Of a stretch of 37,896 nucleotides of DNA, positions 29,385-37,896 are shown one piece after another. Origin of the DNA: an uncultured Clostridia bacterium (GTDB lineage: Bacteria > Bacillota > Clostridia > Christensenellales > CAG-1252); NCBI GenBank assembly GCA_946626795.1, contig CAMOUZ010000001.1, forward strand, positions 1 through 37,896. Direction: 5' to 3'. Each line of letters starts with the position of its first letter. Position 1 is the first letter of the stretch. The position numbers and the translations under genes are program-made. The notes below the pieces were generated by a model. It saw nothing but the letters and a program-made list of their open reading frames with translations, made no database searches and was not told where the DNA came from.

Positions 29385-29471
29385 TCCATCCTTGAAAACA
29401 AAGGAAGAAAAGAGGTCGACAAAACCGCACTTCCATTAGGGAATTTTCGGTAAGGCTGTTCTTTGAGAATC

Positions 29472-29500
29472 AGGCGTGGCGTAATGCCACGCCTTTTCTC
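29472..29500 (+). terminator. rho-independent terminator of the 21663-29384 operon
   Basis: Perfect 9-bp stem aggcgtggc / gccacgcct with loop gtaat, then a T-rich tract. Confidence 0.85.
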
Positions 29501-29509
29501 TTGTTTGTT

Positions 29510-29866
29510 TCAGTCGAAGTCGGGGATTTCAACGGCTCCGACGAAGTTGTACATGATTTCTATTGTGTGTTTGTAATGTCCGTCAACTTTCTGCTTTTCG
29601 TTGATCAGCACCTTGTCTATGAACGCTCGCAGGATCTCAGGCGTCAATTCCTTAAAGTCGCTGTAATTGTCCACGAGAGAAACGAATTTTATGATCTCTT
29701 CGGTTTTGTTCTTGGACTTTTCCATATCCGTTTTTAACACAGACACTTTGTCCGTCAACGACCGCTGTTCCGTTTCGTAGTTTTCGCTCATCTTCATATA
29801 GCGTTCTTCGGAAAGTTTGCCTGCTACTTTATCTTCGTAAAGACTTTAAATGATCTTGTCGAGCGT
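29510..29866 (-). pseudogene. C-terminal remnant of a large serine recombinase (DUF4368-type tail)
   Basis: The translation ...TLDKII*SLYEDKVAGKLSEERYMKMSENYETEQ...ELTPEILRAFIDKVLINEKQKVDGHYKHTIEIMYNFVG matches the conserved C-terminal region of Firmicutes transposon and prophage serine recombinases. There is an in-frame TAA at 29846-29848. No resolvase catalytic domain or zinc-ribbon domain is present upstream. Confidence 0.75.
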
Positions 29867-29877
29867 TTTTGTGTTGC

Positions 29878-29986
29878 GCGAAATAGGTGTGTAGAAACAG
29901 TCATCTCGACTTTGTTCGGTGGACAAAAAGCCTCACAGAGCCTACGACCAAACAACGTTTGGTGTAGTAGGCTACACCTATTTCGC
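29878..29986. repeat. 109-bp structured element closed by a perfect 13-bp inverted repeat
   Basis: gcgaaataggtgt (29878-29890) pairs with acacctatttcgc (29974-29986). There is an inner hairpin, cctac-g-accaaa / tttggt-gta-gtagg. Confidence 0.6.
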
Positions 29987-30131
29987 TTCATCTCGTTTTG
30001 CTTGCAATTTGCTTTCCCGAATAGGTCTTTTGTAATCACTTCCGCAAGCGACCAAAAAACGGCTATAAAGGACTATCCCGTGCGTTCATCTGTATCTCCT
30101 TGAAATATGTTTCAAACTGAATACAGACGAC

Positions 30132-30200
30132 AAAAAAGGGCGAACAGACAAAACCTCAGATGTGTTTCCTTAACACAAAATAAGGTCTATCTGTTCGCCC
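30132..30200 (-). terminator. terminator-like hairpin (minus strand)
   Basis: 11-bp perfect stem gggcgaacaga (30138-30148) / tctgttcgccc (30190-30200) with a 41-nt loop. TTTTTT follows on the minus strand. Confidence 0.5.
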
Positions 30201-30375
30201 GAAGTCTCGTGGTTCTCGGTTTCGTACTGTTCTCTCCGCTCACTGCCACAGTTTTCACGCGGTTTAAGTCAATACGGCTTCTGCCAAGTATCATCGCTTA
30301 ACGAACGTCAGCGGCAAGCAATGGTATTTTACCTACCGCCCGTATTCGGTTTGTAGTGTATCACTTTCAGATTGG

Positions 30376-30425
30376 TTTGTAAAGGTTGAGGTGTCGGTTT
30401 TAGCAAACACCTTAACGCTTTTTTT
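30376..30425 (+). repeat. terminator-like repeat unit, copy 1 (TTTGTAAAG + hairpin + T-run)
   Basis: tttgtaaag, then the stem gttgaggtg / caccttaac, then cgc and a T-run. It is a paralogue of 30545-30590. Confidence 0.6.
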
Positions 30426-30455
30426 ATTATATAACAATATCATTGAAAATTCAAA

Positions 30456-30493
30456 TTTTCACTTCCCGGTTTTGGGAAGTGAAAAAGTTTTTT
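30456..30493 (+). terminator. terminator-like hairpin
   Basis: Perfect 12-bp stem ttttcacttccc / gggaagtgaaaa with loop ggtttt, then agtttttt. Confidence 0.6.
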
Positions 30494-30544
30494 GCGAATT
30501 TTTTCTTTCGTGGCACCTTGCCGATCGTATATCACAAAAAACTC

Positions 30545-30590
30545 TTTGTAAAGATTAGGGTGCTGAAGATTTCAACACCCTAACGTTTTT
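30545..30590. repeat. terminator-like repeat unit, copy 2; probable terminator of the 30621-35324 gene
   Basis: tttgtaaag, then the stem ttagggtg (30555-30562) / caccctaa (30576-30583), then cgttttt on the + strand. On the - strand it lies 38 nt after the giant-gene stop and is followed by tcttt. Confidence 0.6.
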
Positions 30591-30620
30591 GCTGGTTTTG
30601 CGGTTTATCCGCCTTGATTG

Positions 30621-33600
30621 TTAGTTCTTTTTGCCGAACTTGACGATGCCTTTCTTGTTGAGCAAGAATAGAACAGCGCAAGCGATCAACGCCAAGAGAA
30701 TCACAGAGCCGATGACGATACCCGCAATGGCTCCACCGCTTAAACCGCCCTTTTGTGTGTTCGGAGTGATTTCAGGCTCGCTCGGAGTCGGATTTACAGG
30801 ATCATCAGGCTCTTCGGGATCAACAGGAGTTGGCATCGTGGCCTCTTCAAAGACTACCGCAAACTTCGAGAAGTGGTTCGTCTCAAACGAGACCTTGCCG
30901 TCCGCAAACGTTGCGTTCATATCCGTTTTGTTGCCTTGCGCGTCAACGTAGTAGACCTTTGCGACTTTACCTTCGGGAACAGCCGTCGTAAACGGAAGTT
31001 TGACAGATACGGTGCCGTTTGCAAAAGTCGTATTGCCGAGCGAAAGTTCGATGACCGACCGGATTCCGTCAAGACCGTCTATGCCGAAATTGGAAGTCAG
31101 GACATTTGCCGTAAGATTTGCCGCATTACCGCCGATAGCGTTTACTGCGTTTGCGTCAAACGTTAGCACGAGATCGCCTGCGCTGATTTTTACTTTGCCG
31201 GTTGCTTGTTTAGCCGCGGCAAAGAGAGCCGCGAAGTCGTTTGCAGTGCCGAGAGCCAAAGAATGCTCAAACACTTTTATGCCTTGCTCGTCGGTTGTAT
31301 AGCTGAATCCGCTTGCGGTAATGGTGCGTTGTTCTTTGTGGCTTTCGTCACGAGAGCATACACGCTCTTCAACGCCGTCCTCCGTTTCGGTTGCGGGTGT
31401 GACGACGTGCCAATCGTCCCAGTCGTGACCGAGCGCCTCCAAAATGCCGTATTCGTCAAGATTTTCAATGAGAAGTTGGCAATTCGCGTCCTCAAAATAC
31501 TTGTTGCAATCCGTGCAGTGGTAGTAGGCTTTTTTGCCCGCCGCCGTGCAAGTCGGATCGACTTGAGCCGTTAGTGTCACGTGTTCGTGGTCGCAATCCT
31601 GAACAGGAATAACAGTGTTTTCACTGCGTCTTTCGTGGCAAACGGAACATTCTTCGTGTTTGATACCGGTTGCCGTCTTGGTTGCGGCTGTATCAACAAT
31701 CCATTGCCAATTGTGCGCAAGTTTGTCGATCTTGCCGTCTCCTGCTTTCCAAGCGTTAAGATCTGCGATTTCGTGCTCGCCGAGCGCGTCCGTAAAGCTC
31801 TTGCCGCATTGAGAACAAGTGTAATATGCTTGAACGCCGTATGCCGAGCAGGTGGCGGGAACTTCGCCGACTGATTCAAGGTGCTTGTGGAATGCGTCGA
31901 TAACGAGCGATTCGGGTTCTACTTCATAGTATTCAGTTTCATCTTGGACGAATTTCTTGTGGCAAACGGAGCATTCAAAGTGCGCGTGATTTCCGTCCGT
32001 GGTGCAAGTTGCGGCAATTGCCGCAACTGCTTGATAGTTGTGACCTGCCTTGATAACGAGCGTGGACGGATCGGCGCATTCTACCCAATGGTTTGCCGTG
32101 TCCTCCACATAATATTTGTCGTATCCGCCGAGCGTAAAGTGCTTGTGCGCTCTCATACCGTCCTCCGTGCAGGTTGCGGCTTGGGAAATAAGCGGAAGTC
32201 CGTCCGCTTCGCCCGTTCTGTAAACCCAGATATATGCGCCGGGGAGATTTTCTTCGCAGATATCGCACTTGTTGGCGATCATGATATACGCGCCGTAGGT
32301 TTCGTCGTTGCCGAAGGTGTAGGTGGTCGTTACGTGTTCGTGCGTGCAGGGAGCAACGACGGTAAGCGCGAAGTGATGACCTTCAAAAGCGCCGCGTTTG
32401 ACGGTGAATTGATCGTCAACGTTCTCGTTGACGATGATTTGATAATCCATCACGACGTACGCGTCGTAAACGCCGTTAAGCGTTTCAATGCCGAGAGCCG
32501 CAAGTTTTGCCGCGCTCGTATCAAAGATCAGGTCTTGCGCGTTGTTGTAAGGTTCCGTTCCGTCGCCGTAGTAGTCGGTTTGGGCGAAACAGATATATTC
32601 AATTTCGCCGTCCTCGTTCGGAATGCCGACGTATAGACGGTAACCCGTGACGAAGTGGTAATAACTTGACGCTTTGTGATTGCCGCGAAACCAGGTTTGC
32701 GCGGTGGTAGAAACGTCGCCGTTTGTGAAGAGATATTCGTAATTTGCGCTTGCGACGTCAATCGTTTCACTGTTTCCAAGTTCAACTGTGACGGGATCGA
32801 TTTCCGCCTCGTCTTCACGAGGGAGAACGACGATCGTAAATCTCATTCTCTCGTCGTTTTCTCTGTTATACTCTATGGATTGAACGTGGCCGAGGCCGTC
32901 ATCGTATTCGGCATAAAATCTGCCGTAATACTCAAACGTGCCTGCCATGGACGTGTCGATATACTTTTTGCCCATACCGTTGTCGTTAAGCCCCGTTTCG
33001 TTTCTCCAATCGGTGCCGATAGACTTCTCGAAGTCGGTTGCATTGCCGTCGGTTGCCTCGAAGCCGATAAGGAACACGTCGCCCAAGTGACATACGAGGG
33101 TGTGCTCGTCGTTGTCGAGCATATAGTCGGAATTGCCTTCCGCAAAGGATACCGAAAGACCGCTCGTAAGGTCGGCGTTAAGCACCGTGCCGTCTTTGAT
33201 GACGAATTTGGCGGCGTCGGAATTGACGGAGCCTGCCGCGTTGGATACAACGCAGCGGTAATACGTGCCGTTGGTCGCAACGCTTCTGTCAACGAGATAG
33301 TTGAAAGCATTGGCACCCTCGATATTCGCCCAAGTAATGCCGTCTTCGGAAGATTGCCATTGATAGGTCAGCGTGCCTTGCTTTGTGCTTGCATAAACGG
33401 CGATCGCGTGCGTGTTGTCGGCTTTTGCAAGATTTGCGCCCTGCGGTTGCGTGGTGATGACAGGCTTCGGCAAGTCGATGAAACTGACGGAAACGTCCTC
33501 GGTGTTGGCGTTTCTCTTGTAGCCGTTTTTGGTGCCCGTCACTTGGCAGCGCACGATGAGCGGATCGGCATTCGTTGTTGCACGGGAGATCGTGAGGGTA

Positions 33601-35324
33601 GCCGTGTCCGCATTAGCGAAGGTATAACCGTTTTTCGTGCCGTTTTCGATCGCCTTGTAAAGCGGTGTGCCTTCCGCATACGCCCAGACGTAATACCATT
33701 GATAGGTCACGCTATCGAAATAGTTTGCGTTGTCAACGGTCGCGCCGATCTGAACGTCATAGCCTTTCACTTCTTCTATTTCCGTAGGATTCGAGAGTTT
33801 TGCGACAGGGGAATTATAATCAACGACAGAATATGTAATTTCATCGGAATATTCCCAAACCGAATACAAATTACGGTTTACAAAACGCACGCCGACGCGC
33901 AAAGTTTTTTCGGCTATCTCGGCAGAGCCCGGATAATACGTTGCTTTCGTTGCATAATTGATATTCTGCCATTCGTTGCCGACAAGTTGTTGCCATTGAT
34001 ATTCCGCGCGGATGTCATTGCCGTTTTTATTGTTTTTGGTAGAATATTTCGCTTCTAATTTCGGGTTTTGTCCGATTGATACGCTGATATTTCCCGTCTG
34101 TCCCGAATATGCAACTGCCAAATCCGCAGGCGCGGCAGGAGTAATGTTTTGAGAAACGCGGTCGCTTTCAAAATAACGAACTGCCCCTGCTTTTTCAGAA
34201 GCAAATACTGCATAATACGTCGCATAGTTTGACCCGAACGGAACCGTGTCCTTATAATAGTATTCGGACGTAGTCACTATTTTTTCAAACGAACCGCCGT
34301 TCAGACTTCTGTACCAAGATACGGAAATATTGTTCGGGAACGCATTCCAAACGTCATAACTTGCTTCGGGCTTCAATTCTACGCTGACGCCTTTTGTCGG
34401 ATCGAAATCATCTGCCGTCACGTCATTGTTCAAAACTTCACCGATCCTAATACCGGAATTGATTGAAGCCGGCGTTGTGGAAGGAACGTTGAGCGAACCA
34501 TACCACGCCGTGCCCTGCGATATGCTTTTAGGTTGGTAATTTGACAAATTGAATGTTTGCGCCTTCGGCAAATCAACGTCGCCCAGCGTTGCTTGTTGGC
34601 TTGTCGTTTTGATACTGAAATCGCTTCCTTTGCCGGTAGCGCTTAAATCTCGAACGCCAAGTGTGCCAATTTTACCACCGGACATCAATACAGTCGATCC
34701 TTTGTAATGGATATAATCCGATATCTTCATATTGCCTTCGATTTTGACGGTGGCGCTTGCGGCAGAGAAATCTTCTAAGCCGATATAATAATCCGTGATT
34801 CTTTCAATAGAACCGATGGCATATTCGGAAATGTTCAATTTGGCATTTATGCCAAGAGCAATGGTGCCGAATTGAATCAATCTCTTTATGGTGCCGAACA
34901 TTGAAAACGTTCTGACATCGATATTGAGCGTTCCGCCATCAACATCGATTTGACTAAATCTGAATTGTCCACCGCCGATGCTGTCAATGACAGTCAGCGA
35001 GCCATACACTTTAAGGTAAAAACAATCATCGCGAGTGGAATAGATTTTGTGTCCGTTGAGATCGAGCGTGATATTATCGCCGGCTTTTATGTCAAAATTA
35101 CCGTTCGGATCACCGATACCGGTTGAAACATAATAGTCTTTTTCGAGTACGTGCGTACCGCTACCGCGCAACAAGTTTTGAAGCGCATAATGATCGGCGC
35201 TTTCCGCATACGCGGTCAGAGTCGTGGCGGGCAGGAGCGCAAATATCATTGTGAGCATCATCGCTATACCGAGCAAAACGGATACTACGCTTGCCATCTT
35301 TTTTCTTGCCTTTTGGTTTGTCAT
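30621..35324 (-). CDS. giant membrane-anchored surface protein (1567 aa)
   Basis: AAAGGAGA RBS and a signal peptide ending TLTAYA. Beta-helix-like N-terminal region (ITLDLNGHKI, GSLTVIDS). Three Ig-like modules with a YQWQ/YQWY signature (for example LTYQWQSSEDGITWANIEGA...YYRCVVSNAAGSVNS). Five CxxC modules and a beta-sandwich ending HFSKFAVVF. Then a Pro-rich stalk and a C-terminal TM helix plus a KKGIVKFGKKN tail. There is no LPXTG motif. Confidence 0.85.
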   Translation of the reverse strand: MTNQKARKKMASVVSVLLGIAMMLTMIFALLPATTLTAYAESADHYALQNLLRGSGTHVLEKDYYVSTGIGDPNGNFDIKAGDNITLDLNGHKIYSTRDDCFYLKVYGSLTVIDSIGGGQFRFSQIDVDGGTLNIDVRTFSMFGTIKRLIQFGTIALGINAKLNISEYAIGSIERITDYYIGLEDFSAASATVKIEGNMKISDYIHYKGSTVLMSGGKIGTLGVRDLSATGKGSDFSIKTTSQQATLGDVDLPKAQTFNLSNYQPKSISQGTAWYGSLNVPSTTPASINSGIRIGEVLNNDVTADDFDPTKGVSVELKPEASYDVWNAFPNNISVSWYRSLNGGSFEKIVTTSEYYYKDTVPFGSNYATYYAVFASEKAGAVRYFESDRVSQNITPAAPADLAVAYSGQTGNISVSIGQNPKLEAKYSTKNNKNGNDIRAEYQWQQLVGNEWQNINYATKATYYPGSAEIAEKTLRVGVRFVNRNLYSVWEYSDEITYSVVDYNSPVAKLSNPTEIEEVKGYDVQIGATVDNANYFDSVTYQWYYVWAYAEGTPLYKAIENGTKNGYTFANADTATLTISRATTNADPLIVRCQVTGTKNGYKRNANTEDVSVSFIDLPKPVITTQPQGANLAKADNTHAIAVYASTKQGTLTYQWQSSEDGITWANIEGANAFNYLVDRSVATNGTYYRCVVSNAAGSVNSDAAKFVIKDGTVLNADLTSGLSVSFAEGNSDYMLDNDEHTLVCHLGDVFLIGFEATDGNATDFEKSIGTDWRNETGLNDNGMGKKYIDTSMAGTFEYYGRFYAEYDDGLGHVQSIEYNRENDERMRFTIVVLPREDEAEIDPVTVELGNSETIDVASANYEYLFTNGDVSTTAQTWFRGNHKASSYYHFVTGYRLYVGIPNEDGEIEYICFAQTDYYGDGTEPYNNAQDLIFDTSAAKLAALGIETLNGVYDAYVVMDYQIIVNENVDDQFTVKRGAFEGHHFALTVVAPCTHEHVTTTYTFGNDETYGAYIMIANKCDICEENLPGAYIWVYRTGEADGLPLISQAATCTEDGMRAHKHFTLGGYDKYYVEDTANHWVECADPSTLVIKAGHNYQAVAAIAATCTTDGNHAHFECSVCHKKFVQDETEYYEVEPESLVIDAFHKHLESVGEVPATCSAYGVQAYYTCSQCGKSFTDALGEHEIADLNAWKAGDGKIDKLAHNWQWIVDTAATKTATGIKHEECSVCHERRSENTVIPVQDCDHEHVTLTAQVDPTCTAAGKKAYYHCTDCNKYFEDANCQLLIENLDEYGILEALGHDWDDWHVVTPATETEDGVEERVCSRDESHKEQRTITASGFSYTTDEQGIKVFEHSLALGTANDFAALFAAAKQATGKVKISAGDLVLTFDANAVNAIGGNAANLTANVLTSNFGIDGLDGIRSVIELSLGNTTFANGTVSVKLPFTTAVPEGKVAKVYYVDAQGNKTDMNATFADGKVSFETNHFSKFAVVFEEATMPTPVDPEEPDDPVNPTPSEPEITPNTQKGGLSGGAIAGIVIGSVILLALIACAVLFLLNKKGIVKFGKKN

Positions 35325-35359
35325 AAAATCTCTCCTTTTCTACTAAAAAAGTTGTCTTA

Positions 35360-35388
35360 ATTGTAGTTTTTTTCTTTAGAAAAAGAAA
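35360..35388 (-). promoter_or_regulatory. candidate promoter of the giant surface-protein gene (good -10, poor -35)
   Basis: The minus strand has TACAAT at 35365-35360. The -35 position reads TTTCTT, so the promoter may depend on an activator. Confidence 0.4.
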
Positions 35389-35390
35389 TA

Positions 35391-35428
35391 GTTAGAGCGG
35401 CCAAAAACGCATGGCCGCTCGGCTAAAC
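35391..35428. promoter_or_regulatory. dyad element A (GCGGCC-N10-GGCCGC with flanking CGGCTAA); also a possible terminator of the LuxR-type gene
   Basis: gttagagcggccaaaaacgcatggccgctcggctaaac. 24 of 34 aligned positions are identical to element B at 37454-37491. The proximal half-site is 32 nt from the -10. Confidence 0.5.
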
Positions 35429-35565
35429 TTTTCAATTTGATTCATGACACAGCAAATATTGTAAGATTTCCGCAAAAACAGAGAGGAACGTATATGATCA
35501 AATGTAAAAAAACACCATGCCACAGATTATGCCCTCATTCCCGTAGTTGTCGGATTATGCAAAAA

Positions 35566-37371
35566 TCAAAAGTAATCTTTGTAGCGAAGGATAAGATCGG
35601 TACGTGACGAACAAGCAAGCTTTCTGTAAATATTCATCAGATCGAACTTGATCGTTCCAACTGAAAAATGCAGTTCTTCGGCAATTTGTTCTCTCGTTTT
35701 GCCTGAAAGCGTCAAGGCGACGATCTTGTATTCTCTCTCGGTCAGCGTGTCGATGCGCTCTTTTTCGGTCATAACAGGCGCAACGGGGTGCTGTTCTTCC
35801 GTTTCCGACGTTTCGGCTCCCGTTTCTTGCGCTTCGGGGGCTTTTACATTTGTTTTTCTCTTCTTTCTGAACACCACGAAGAGAACGACGAACGACGCGG
35901 AGAGCGCCGCGCCTATCACGACGAGAACGATCACAAGCGTAAGATTGATTTGCGGTTTTGCGGGAATTTCGTTGTATTCTCCGATGGCGCAGGATTGCGT
36001 TGCACCCGCAAATGCGCTGTGCCAACTTCGATACACGTTTGCAGGGACGTAAATATCCGCGTCGCTACCTTTTACGGCGTAAACGCTTTCTCCATCTGCG
36101 ATGTTCAGATCGTTTATTGCACCGCTGTCGAGCGCTTCGGTCGCCGCAGCGATATAATTATAAGCAGAAGGAGAAGTTTCGTATTCATCGTCGCCAATTA
36201 CCATACAGCCGCGCAGAACGATATAGCCGAGAAGTCCGTCCGTCTCGTAAAAGCCGAACGTGCCTTGGTCCGGCGCCGTATTGTTCGCCGCTTTTGAAAA
36301 CAGAAGATTGATTTGTCCGCCGTTATATTTCTTCGTCCAATAGGCATAGGGCTGTGTATAGAGAATACTTCCTTTATCCATCGCCGTGTTGCCATAGAAC
36401 TCGCACCCTACAAAATCTATAGGTTGTCCCTGCAAGCTGTCAATGAACACCGCGCCGCCGTCTTCCGCTCTGTTGTTTTCGATACGACAGTTTTTTATCA
36501 GCATACTACCGTTTCCCGCAAATGCGGAAGTGAGCGCAAGCCCGCCGCCGTATTTGGTTTCATTGCCCGTGATAACGCAATCGGCCATATCGAGGTCTAC
36601 GCCGCCGATATAAACGCCGCCGCCACGGTCTTCAGATCCGAGATCGGCAAACGGATAGAATGCATTGTCTGAAACGTTGCAGCTTTTTATTTCGGCTTTT
36701 CCGTTGCTGATGACAAAACCGCCCGCCGCACCTACGGTGTTATGATAAAAATTACTGTTTTCGATTTTTGTCGTCAATTTGTCGTTGAACACTTTGACCG
36801 TGCCGTGTTTTGCCACGTTGTCATGAAAATCGCAGTTTTCTATCAAGAGCGTCTGCGCTTCGTCACGAAACTTATTGCCAAAATAGAGCGCGCTGCCTTC
36901 AAGCGACGCATATCCCTTGATTTCAACGTTTTTCAAAACAAGATTCGTATAGCCCCAATCCGCCGTGATACAGCGTTTTTCTTCTCGTTCACCGTCAAAC
37001 ACTTCTTCAAAGGTTTTATCCGTTCCGTCAGGCTCTTCATAACAGCCGCCGTCCAAAATGATGTTTTCAAAGGTGACGGCATTCGTTTCACCCGCAACGT
37101 TCGGACTGATGATTTTGAAATGTGCGTTTTTTATCGTCGCTTTCATTCCGTTGCCTCTGATTGTCAATCCGTAGTTGATTTGAACGACGGTGTCTTCGTC
37201 AAAGGTTATGTCATTCGCAAGGATCAAAGTTTCTTTGTTTTGGAGCGAGAAAAAAAACTCTGCCGTATCACGTACAACTGCGCCTTGCTGTTCTTTGTTG
37301 CTCGCACACCCGACAAACAATGCCAACAATGCAATTACGAACATTAAAACCGCCGCTATTCTTTTAGCCAT
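35566..37371 (-). CDS. membrane-tethered LuxR/GerE-family transcriptional regulator with an exported beta-helix ectodomain (601 aa)
   Basis: N-terminal signal peptide MAKRIAAVLMFVIALLALFVGC. About 450 aa of PbH1-like rungs (LVLKNVEIKG, LLIENCDFHDN, KIENSNFYHN, EIKSCNVSDN, ADCVITGNET, LIKNCRIENNRA, FVGCEFYGN). TM helix INLTLVIVLVVIGAALSASFVVLFVVF followed by RKKRK, then an acidic linker. C-terminal HTH LTEREYKIVALTLSGKTREQIAEELHFSVGTIKFDLMNIYRKL. I prefer ATG 37371 over the TTG at 37389. Confidence 0.85.
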   Translation of the reverse strand: MAKRIAAVLMFVIALLALFVGCASNKEQQGAVVRDTAEFFFSLQNKETLILANDITFDEDTVVQINYGLTIRGNGMKATIKNAHFKIISPNVAGETNAVTFENIILDGGCYEEPDGTDKTFEEVFDGEREEKRCITADWGYTNLVLKNVEIKGYASLEGSALYFGNKFRDEAQTLLIENCDFHDNVAKHGTVKVFNDKLTTKIENSNFYHNTVGAAGGFVISNGKAEIKSCNVSDNAFYPFADLGSEDRGGGVYIGGVDLDMADCVITGNETKYGGGLALTSAFAGNGSMLIKNCRIENNRAEDGGAVFIDSLQGQPIDFVGCEFYGNTAMDKGSILYTQPYAYWTKKYNGGQINLLFSKAANNTAPDQGTFGFYETDGLLGYIVLRGCMVIGDDEYETSPSAYNYIAAATEALDSGAINDLNIADGESVYAVKGSDADIYVPANVYRSWHSAFAGATQSCAIGEYNEIPAKPQINLTLVIVLVVIGAALSASFVVLFVVFRKKRKTNVKAPEAQETGAETSETEEQHPVAPVMTEKERIDTLTEREYKIVALTLSGKTREQIAEELHFSVGTIKFDLMNIYRKLACSSRTDLILRYKDYF

Positions 37372-37422
37372 AAGTACGATTCCTTTCAATTACGGAAACC
37401 TCTAGTATGCAAGAATAAATTT

Positions 37423-37450
37423 ATTATACCATAATATTCCTATAAATCAA
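37423..37450 (-). promoter_or_regulatory. promoter of the LuxR-type regulator gene
   Basis: The minus strand reads TTGATT (37450-37445), a 16-nt spacer, then TGG-TATAAT (extended -10, 37428-37423). Confidence 0.75.
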
Positions 37451-37453
37451 TGT

Positions 37454-37491
37454 CAGGGCGGCTAAACCTCTTTGGCCGCGCGGCTAATAAT
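37454..37491. promoter_or_regulatory. dyad element B (GCGGCT-N10-GGCCGC with flanking CGGCTAA)
   Basis: cagggcggctaaacctctttggccgcgcggctaataat. The proximal half-site is 30 nt from the -10. No T-run follows on the minus strand, so it is unlikely to be a terminator. Confidence 0.5.
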
Positions 37492-37582
37492 CGAAAAGCC
37501 ACCGGGATTTCCGCATTTTTCGAGGTCTTGGCTGCAATAACAGTCAACTTAATTTTTCTTAAAAACCGGTGCCGCCACAAAC

Positions 37583-37611
37583 AAAAAGGACTTGGAAATC
37601 AATCCAAATCC
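37583..37611 (-). terminator. terminator-like hairpin (minus strand) with no ORF upstream
   Basis: Stem ggacttgga / tccaaatcc (one mismatch) with a 6-nt loop. TTTTT follows on the minus strand. Confidence 0.5.
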
Positions 37612-37799
37612 TTGAATGCCCACCGCTTGAAAGTGCAATTACCATTAAATTTCAGTTTTTCATAAAATCCCTAATGGAACAGCACTAAGCGCCGACTTCT
37701 TTTTTTTGTCTTTGGTTTTCGTCGCGCGTTTAGGCAAAAAGCCCAAAGCTTACGCCGTCCTTTCGCAGCCCTCTATTCGGAGCACCCGCTCGAATTCGC

Positions 37800-37828
37800 T
37801 TGACGGCTTTTTCCGTCGATAGTATAAT
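37800..37828 (+). promoter_or_regulatory. consensus-like promoter reading out of the window
   Basis: TTGACG (37800-37805), a 17-nt spacer, then TATAAT (37823-37828). Confidence 0.7.
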
Positions 37829-37880
37829 TTCACTTTGTTAAAAGTAAATCCCAAGACGGCATGGCGATAAGGAAAAAAGT

Positions 37881-37896
37881 ATGATACGGAAAGATT
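37881..37896 (+). CDS. possible 5' end of a CDS (MIRKD...), cut by window edge
   Basis: ATG 37881 lies after AAGGAAAAAAG and about 50 nt downstream of the promoter. Only 5 codons are visible. Confidence 0.3.

Follow-up and report, generated by a model that had tools for sequence, protein, structure and literature searches.

A candidate three-part LuxR-type operator at the promoters of a membrane-tethered regulator gene and an adjacent giant gene in rumen Clostridia

Regulators of the ToxR/CadC type are single-pass membrane proteins with a cytoplasmic DNA-binding domain and a sensor outside, and they control small regulons that often include neighbouring genes; their DNA-binding domain is an N-terminal winged helix of the OmpR type, in an N-in/C-out topology. 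The response regulator NarL is phosphorylated and has many targets, at positions that vary, and its 7-2-7 sites are inverted repeats with a 2-bp separation, bound by a dimer of the LuxR/NarL-type helix-turn-helix (HTH) domain; to our knowledge, the 7-2-7 definition does not include a fixed third half-site in constant phase. Targets of ComA consist of an inverted repeat, RE1-RE2, and direct elements RE3/RE4 located between the repeat and a poorly conserved -35, with a class I position proposed for the inverted repeat and class II for the proximal elements (PMC4797271). ComA-dependent promoter sites of Bacillus subtilis are the subject of Griffith & Grossman (2008), as cited in PMC3246441. Here, we describe two related elements, A and B, on a 37,896-nt stretch of DNA from an uncultured Clostridia bacterium (contig CAMOUZ010000001.1, positions 1 to 37,896; the window), where they lie upstream of a giant gene and of a regulator gene, respectively. 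We consider it likely that A and B are two copies of one operator, with hexamers in a 6-2-6-8-6 arrangement, which would be recognised by the LuxR/GerE HTH of the adjacent regulator and would serve ComA-like activation of a two-promoter regulon, with a hairpin in element A probably acting as a terminator in the window's lineage. Conservation, fixed spacing, exclusive co-occurrence with the regulator and co-variation with its recognition helix are read directly from the sequences; that the regulator binds, in what stoichiometry and with which sign, where transcripts start and where they end is what we infer. The comparisons below support the view that a LuxR-type operator with ComA-like architecture serves an undescribed family of membrane-tethered regulators; literature searches for a described family combining beta-helix, transmembrane (TM) helix and LuxR domain returned nothing relevant.

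The repeated element and its association with the regulator

The elements and the two genes beside them are as follows.

35398..35427, minus strand: element A (aligned 34-nt stretch 35395-35428), TTTAGCCG-AG-CGGCCA-TGCGTTTT-TGGCCG, upstream of the giant gene; exact pattern match
35420-35427, 35412-35417 and 35398-35403, minus strand: half-sites hs1, hs2 and hs3 of element A (hs3 extends to 35405 with its T-run)
37459..37488, minus strand: element B (aligned 34-nt stretch 37456-37489), ATTAGCCG-CG-CGGCCA-AAGAGGTT-TAGCCG, upstream of the regulator gene; exact pattern match
37481-37486, 37473-37478 and 37459-37464, minus strand: half-sites hs1, hs2 and hs3 of element B
35566..37371, minus strand: regulator gene, 601 aa; Pfam GerE 9.3e-13 (residues 541-595) and Beta_helix 2.7e-12
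30621..35324, minus strand: giant gene, 1567 aa; signal peptide, immunoglobulin-like and CxxC modules and a C-terminal TM anchor, from the translation

Read along the minus strand, the order is element B, promoter, regulator gene, element A, a TACAAT -10 box and the giant gene. The regulator carries a lipoprotein-type signal peptide, a right-handed beta-helix ectodomain, one TM helix at approximately residues 475-503 followed by RKKRK, and the C-terminal GerE/LuxR HTH; hydropathy gave two hydrophobic segments only. Pfam gave no Response_reg match, the N-terminal 470 residues being accounted for by the signal peptide and the ectodomain, after which the TM helix begins. The closest solved relative of the HTH was the C-domain of ComA (2krf, E 4e-7). 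Compared with ToxR/CadC the topology is reversed, with an exported N-terminal sensor and a C-terminal LuxR-type HTH, so that the protein would work alike without being a member of that group. The giant gene is presumed to be the target of the regulator. No Pfam family matched the giant protein, and the regulator ectodomain had no similarity to it at E<=1, a similarity that would have hinted at self-sensing.

The first-pass annotation had found both strings, which are indeed present, although its start for A at 35391 is 4 nt early and its B is 2 nt wide on each side; its count of 24 identities in 34 aligned positions becomes 23 of 34 on recounting. The patterns that it described, GCGGCY-N10-GGCCGC followed by CGGCTAA, hold for A and B and are unique to these two places. 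GCGGCY-N10-GGCCGC was found at two places only, in the window as in the whole 1.2-Mb, 147-contig assembly (at one mismatch, about one match would be expected in the window), and GGCCGC-N-CGGCTAA was found in the assembly in A and B alone. The similarity between A and B is far beyond chance, and the half-site shows strong avoidance in the rest of the genome: TTTRGCCG occurs seven times in the assembly, both strands counted, with five occurrences in the window and four of them inside A and B. The hs2-hs3 pair, when searched in the assembly, was found in the two elements only. As a separate observation, the 7-mer CGGCTAA occurs 18 times in the assembly, against a median of 98 for 7-mers.

Alignment of loci with orthologous regulators (52-95% identical) provided 13 A-type and 12 B-type copies, 25 in all, from 13 and 12 loci respectively; a protein-based metagenome scan yielded 3 usable loci. 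The first-pass annotation had suggested checking for conservation upstream of orthologous pairs, and both elements were kept in nearly all loci fetched, the half-sites of A being near-invariant. On the gene (minus) strand, the conserved unit is TTTRGCCG-NN-CGGCYA-N6-TTTRGCCG, or, written as hexamers, 6-2-6-8-6 (TAGCCG-NN-CGGCYA-N8-TRGCCG) in the orientation -> <- ->. When 20 distinct copies were compared, no change was seen at 14 of the 20 half-site positions, and at three others conservation was at least 90%; the spacers vary. The 22-bp dyad previously offered as a dimer target is therefore only hs2 plus hs3, the promoter-proximal two thirds of the unit, and the CGGCTAA tail noted beside it is hs1; the proposal that the sequence is an operator is supported, but the unit that is conserved consists of three half-sites.

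The pair formed by hs1 and hs2, TAGCCG-NN-CGGCYA, is near invariant in the 20 distinct copies and has centres 8 bp apart (9 as heptamers), whereas those of hs2 and hs3 are 14 bp apart. A head-to-head HTH dimer can span approximately 8-13 bp, a range that includes the 8 bp of hs1/hs2, and from its sequence the distal 6-2-6 pair reads as a palindrome with canonical LuxR/NarL geometry. The spacer of the inverted repeat is 2 nt with TAGCCG hexamers and 4 nt if the frame is shifted by one base (TTAGCC-N4-GGCTAA); the 6-2-6 reading is favoured because positions 6 and 9 are about 90% conserved. Written as TTAGCCG-NN-CGGCTAA, the palindrome fits the 7-2-7 form of NarL sites, from which it differs in half-site sequence.

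Among 401 genomes of the order, 3 contained the 28-nt pattern; in every one of these it stood exactly twice, both times on the same strand and with some 2.06 kb between the copies. A control pattern gave 0. Allowing up to 3 mismatches, there were still two sites per genome in three related genomes, one of them 100% complete at 2.0 Mb. At up to 4 mismatches the assembly had six further weak matches, five of them on other contigs, and the conserved half-sites were retained in none; with the 6-2-6 palindrome alone and 1 mismatch, three near-palindromes were found on other contigs. Of the 28 genomes of the family, 4 encode the regulator and all 4 of these contain the motif, and genomes without the regulator are without the motif. 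A scan of 596 Gb, with one genome for each of approximately 185,000 species, returned 24 stretches matching the 28-nt pattern, where about 17 were expected by chance as estimated from its information content; matches outside the Clostridia were single and mostly in GC-rich taxa, while the sole double match and all four matches in rumen Clostridia adjoin the regulator. Two sites per genome exclude the genome-wide terminator repeat that the first-pass annotation had set as a condition refuting its proposal, and they limit the regulon to the two promoters. The small regulon it had predicted, comprising the regulator's own promoter and that of the giant gene, is thus supported, except that autoregulation is not universal, as one clade lacks element B (see below).

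A full HMMER scan found paralogous subfamilies of the regulator, to which a word-indexed profile search added none. The wider superfamily shares the architecture (about 600 aa, 27-42% identical) with differing recognition helices. In one subfamily (P0025), approximately 40-42% identical to the window regulator, three loci again have the regulator beside a giant gene without a Pfam family; two loci have the genes in divergent orientation and one has them in tandem. Of the six upstream regions next to these genes, five contain TACCCA-NN-TGGGTA-N8-TACCCA (N7 in one locus); in locus L053, the regulator follows a GH28 gene by 40 nt and is without its own element. Half-site and recognition helix change together between the two specificity classes compared: FSVGTIKFDLM with TAGCCG in the window family and FSENTIKKDLT with TACCCA in the paralogous one, the helix being invariant within each family. 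Three of the four differing helix positions (V/G/F/M versus E/N/K/T) align with R183, Y187 and T190 of ComA, residues that reach into the major groove or make backbone contacts with the DNA (PMC3246441), and the fourth directly precedes R183. The T-A-x-C-C core shared by the half-sites may, to judge from these sequences, correspond to the shared TIK motif of the helices. As a side observation, other superfamily members carry helices such as VSEDTVKTH.

It is mainly because of this co-variation, together with the exclusivity of the motif, that the element is assigned to the adjacent regulator. Another DNA-binding protein could in principle recognise the elements, the linkage to the regulator being incidental, for example through hitch-hiking on a mobile island; the cassette does lie on an island 94% identical to one in another genus, and linkage could reflect co-transfer. 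Yet the 16 orthologous and 3 paralogous loci differ in their flanks and have in common only the regulator and a giant gene, the half-site changes exactly where the recognition helix changes, and the motif is absent from genomes without the regulator, which makes such a protein very improbable.

Promoter geometry and proposed mode of action

Both elements stand at a near-constant distance from predicted promoters, which in the window are as follows.

35360..35365, minus strand: -10 box TACAAT of the giant gene, a consensus match from which the start site is placed
37423..37450, minus strand: regulator promoter, with -35 TTGATT at 37445-37450, a 16-nt spacer and an extended -10, TGgTATAAT (box 37423-37428)

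The distances given earlier from the proximal half-site to the -10 box, 32 nt for A and 30 nt for B, hold when counted from start to end, with 31 and 29 intervening nucleotides; in plus-strand numbering that half-site starts at 35397 in A (-10 at 35360-35365) and at 37458 in B (-10 at 37423-37428). Across orthologous loci, the gap between hs3 and the -10 is 32 nt in 12 of 13 A-type copies and 31 in the remaining one, and 30-32 nt in the 12 B-type copies, so that the equal spacing to both promoters claimed for the window proved to be fixed across 25 copies. Assuming a start 7 nt after the -10 box, the centres of the dyad of hs2 and hs3 fall at about -54.5 (A) and -52.5 (B), the earlier placing having been near -53 to -55, and the operator spans approximately -72 to -45, directly upstream of the -35 position. 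With the -10 box set at -12..-7, hs1 would occupy about -72..-67, hs2 -64..-59 and hs3 -50..-45; on these predicted start sites the centre of the 6-2-6 palindrome is at about -65.5, compared with -54.5 for the dyad.

The two promoter types differ in quality. B-type promoters have a -35 of TTGATT or TTGACT 8 nt after hs3 in nearly all 12 copies (the exceptions are L001, where it lies at 9 nt, and L003, with only TGGAAT there), a spacer of 16-17 nt and usually a TG-extended -10; the regulator promoter of the window scored 10/12 with the TG extension in a promoter scan. A-type promoters have a poor -35, a plain -10 and no TG extension in every lineage. In the window, the -35 position of the giant gene (35384-35389) reads ATTTCT, a poor match to the consensus, and a TG extension is lacking. 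In the paralogous subfamily, the regulator promoters consist of hs3, 8 nt, TTTGAA, 17 nt and TATAAT, with 31 nt to the -10, and the two divergent giant-gene promoters have 32 nt before the -10 and a poor -35. Between hs3 and the -10 (35366-35397 in the window), A-type promoters also contain a conserved TTTCTATTCC block and a T-run/A-run dyad, the window version of this stretch being TTTCTTTTTCTAAAGAAAAAAAC; the paralogous family is without both. These could represent an unusual -35 or spacer, a bend, the site of a second factor or a terminator U-tract.

In the proposed mechanism, the regulator would have the topology of a type-I membrane protein, its beta-helix domain exported and its HTH cytoplasmic, with one TM helix between them; the HTH would reach the DNA either while tethered or after proteolytic release. 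On the model of ComA, a dimer would occupy the distal 6-2-6 palindrome and a further subunit or dimer would sit on hs3 beside the -35 region, and the bound subunits would recruit RNA polymerase to the giant-gene promoter. That promoter should depend on an activator because its -35 is poor and it has no TG extension. Feedback on the regulator's own promoter may also occur, and a positive sign is proposed for it with less confidence.

The likeness to ComA extends to several features. Both proteins have a tetrahelical LuxR/NarL-type HTH, both sets of sites combine a hexamer inverted repeat with a direct half-site beside a weak -35, and both would act at promoters of the housekeeping sigma factor. 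The direct orientation of hs3, its invariant core, its place 8 nt before the -35 position and the poor -35 of all A-type promoters are those of a ComA-type third element. In contrast, the half-site is TAGCCG instead of TTGCGG, the spacer is 2 nt as opposed to 4 with hexamers as defined here, 8 nt separate the second site from the third, and only some B-type copies have a fourth element. The regulator is further set apart by having neither receiver domain nor kinase partner, by being a single-pass membrane protein with an exported beta-helix domain, and by a two-promoter regulon where ComA has a quorum regulon; from its sequence it is judged not to be a member of the ComA system. On the fourth element, we observed a half-site-like hexamer (TAGCCA/GAGCCA) 2 nt after hs3 and abutting the -35 in the B-type copies of L005 (5904-5920), L039, L045, L046 and L043; the window has CTGACA at that place and no such hexamer.

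Some points weigh against operator-mediated activation by the regulator. The -10 and -35 boxes are consensus matches only, and the sign of regulation is deduced from position and promoter quality; the promoter at element B looks strong alone, so that any influence on it might be slight or negative. With centres 8 bp apart, the 6-2-6 spacing is tighter than the 6-4-6 of ComA. Locus L053 has 7 nt, not 8, between hs2 and hs3, and its best -10 match is 21 nt from hs3.

The same operator could also be used for repression, with the bound regulator occluding UP-element or alpha-subunit C-terminal domain contacts, or looping the intervening 2 kb, until a signal received by the beta-helix relieves it. 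All the evidence for binding by the regulator applies equally to this alternative, the near-consensus promoter at element B (TTGATT, 16-17 nt, TGnTATAAT) should need no activator, and two sites of the same orientation 2.06 kb apart could loop. However, there are 8 nt between the downstream end of the operator and the -35 position, and both promoter hexamers lie clear of it; the poor -35 and missing TG extension of the giant-gene promoter in every lineage are the signature of activator dependence, as at ComA targets. Looping is moreover not required, because a luxS-linked clade has only site A. We therefore regard repression as unlikely and prefer activation of the giant gene.

The element A hairpin and termination

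The half-sites hs2 and hs3 are inverted with respect to each other, and in element A they form, together with flanking bases, part of a stable stem.

35395..35420, minus strand: element A hairpin, hs2, hs3 and flanking bases; 9-bp GC-rich stem GAGCGGCCA/UGGCCGCUC with an 8-nt loop

A U-rich tail (35372-35394) follows this hairpin, the U-run beginning 6 nt past the stem. The RNA of 35370-35440 (71 nt, including a second small hairpin) folds at -23.2 kcal/mol with a z-score of -4.2, and the hairpin region alone at -19.5 kcal/mol. The gene strand of element B folds no better than shuffled sequence (z -0.5), and a consensus terminator scan called neither element. An Rfam E-value scan of 35200-37896 matched no family. 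Measured against intrinsic terminators, element A is alike in having, past the regulator stop, a GC-rich stem of 9 bp and then a U-rich stretch. It is unlike in its loop of 8-10 nt, in the 6 nt between stem and U-run, and in a conserved half-site that the stem does not include; poor hairpins are formed by B and by the paralogous versions.

Loci fall into two sets in this respect. Seven (L005, L043, L046, L007, L044, L040 and L039) have a strong separate terminator after the regulator stop and an hs2-hs3 hairpin of -9 to -16.6 kcal/mol. In the window clade, L001 and L003, nothing else at that place makes a convincing terminator, and the hs2-hs3 hairpin has -18 to -20 kcal/mol; in its stem, position 13/24 is changed on both sides, C:G replacing T:A, and flanking pairs are added. 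The stem core pairs are kept by sequence identity and not by compensation, and three flanking pairs break in 35-40% of copies. On this pattern, element A probably also terminates the regulator transcript in the window lineage. The first-pass annotation had raised termination as a caveat; the caveat is borne out insofar as the hairpin is strengthened where other terminators are missing, but termination leaves the element as a whole unexplained. A is not simply the terminator of the regulator, because in seven loci a strong terminator distinct from A already stands between it and the regulator stop.

Taken to its limit, the terminator argument would make A and B hairpins and nothing else, A terminating the regulator gene, B acting as a terminator or insulator, and their similarity being that of a shared terminator repeat. 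The GC stem of A with its U-rich tail and low z-score, and the two-sided change at position 13/24 in just those lineages with a strong hairpin and no other terminator, are what such an account would predict. It meets difficulty in hs1, which is not part of the hairpin yet equals hs2 and hs3 in conservation, in the weak hs2-hs3 hairpins of the seven loci that terminate elsewhere, in the gene strand of B, with a fold no better than that of shuffled sequence, and the silence of the terminator scan, in flanking pairs that break while the core is kept by identity, in the paralogous TACCCA version, which would give a 5-6-bp AT-rich stem, and in a number of two copies per genome, which is not that of a genome-wide terminator repeat. 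We hold it to be highly improbable. As a complete account, termination was rejected on hs1, element B, the fixed promoter spacing and the paralogous version; an operator that, in some lineages, probably doubles as a terminator is the reading we retain.

A second structure of this kind lies beyond element B.

37586..37613, minus strand: terminator-like hairpin with T-run upstream of element B, from the terminator scan

It would insulate the regulator promoter from upstream transcription. Similar hairpins were also seen upstream of element B in L003 and L005.

Lineages, mobility and significance

In a clade represented by L007 (5378-6000) and L044 (139-700), the regulator directly follows luxS, the gene for autoinducer-2 (AI-2) synthase, with a gap of 35-98 nt. 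This clade is without element B and has a standard TTGACT-17-TATAAT promoter before luxS. Autoregulation is thus, by its predicted sites, lineage-specific, and in the luxS clade the regulator would be co-expressed with the autoinducer synthase. The giant protein of L003 is an orthologue of that in the window (62% identical), whereas the giant gene of L007 (8012-13788) is not homologous to the window giant gene, yet element A and its promoter are kept. These loci indicate that the element travels with the regulator and not with the cargo gene, different cargo genes being placed under the same module.

In the window, the cassette lies on an island (29400-37705) that is 94% identical to a region of G025, a genome of another genus, over 31723-37692. 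The similarity ends at approximately 37686-37706 in three genomes, and the regulator is missing from most genomes of the window's own genus, which points to horizontal transfer, or possibly to mis-binning of the contig. Stretches at the island edges (37576-37708, 29423-29988 and 30132-30424) are multi-copy in G025, where 4-6 additional places match them at 74-94% identity. The 37576-37708 repeat holds the orphan minus-strand hairpin 37586-37613 and matches several G025 places at 74-88%.

Such a setting also admits A and B as direct-repeat sites at which a site-specific recombinase would cut out the regulator gene or turn it round, and a decayed serine recombinase lies nearby. They flank the regulator gene in direct orientation, and recombinase remnants occur at the island edge and in L005. 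A-type and B-type spacers, however, differ consistently and are each conserved, leaving no common crossover core; the spacing to the -10 and -35 boxes is fixed; the luxS-linked clade has one copy only; and the divergent paralogous loci have inverted copies about 150 bp apart with no gene between. Recombination sites are, to our mind, scarcely credible, and the two elements are better read as operators.

Put together, the observations would fit an undescribed mobile 'sensor-operator-cargo' cassette, a wider reading that we offer tentatively and hold to be plausible rather than probable. Its regulators would be LuxR proteins tethered to the membrane in type-I fashion and bearing beta-helix ectodomains. 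They would form a superfamily in which every regulator controls, through a 6-2-6-8-6 operator, a private regulon of two promoters, its own and that of an adjacent giant surface-protein gene, the latter being swappable cargo, with half-sites co-evolving with four helix residues to give orthogonal pairs; DNA may be bound in cis at the membrane, aided by co-translational insertion of both products.

For an uncharacterised regulator family of rumen Clostridia, the elements provide a concrete, testable DNA target and a minimal regulon, which is the usual bottleneck for proteins encountered in metagenomes only. Two natural specificity classes on one architecture make a ready experiment on DNA reading by LuxR-type helices and offer orthogonal regulator-promoter pairs, and in some lineages one sequence is probably both operator and terminator. 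The link between an exported beta-helix domain and the expression of a giant surface protein suggests an adhesin-like protein switched on by an external cue. Judging from the beta-helix fold, the ectodomain may be carbohydrate-binding. In L053 (2245-4000), a GH28 polygalacturonase gene, itself encoding a beta-helix enzyme, precedes the regulator, with GH65 and ABC genes upstream, and this neighbourhood hints that the beta-helix sensor domain may be related to pectin or other polysaccharides.

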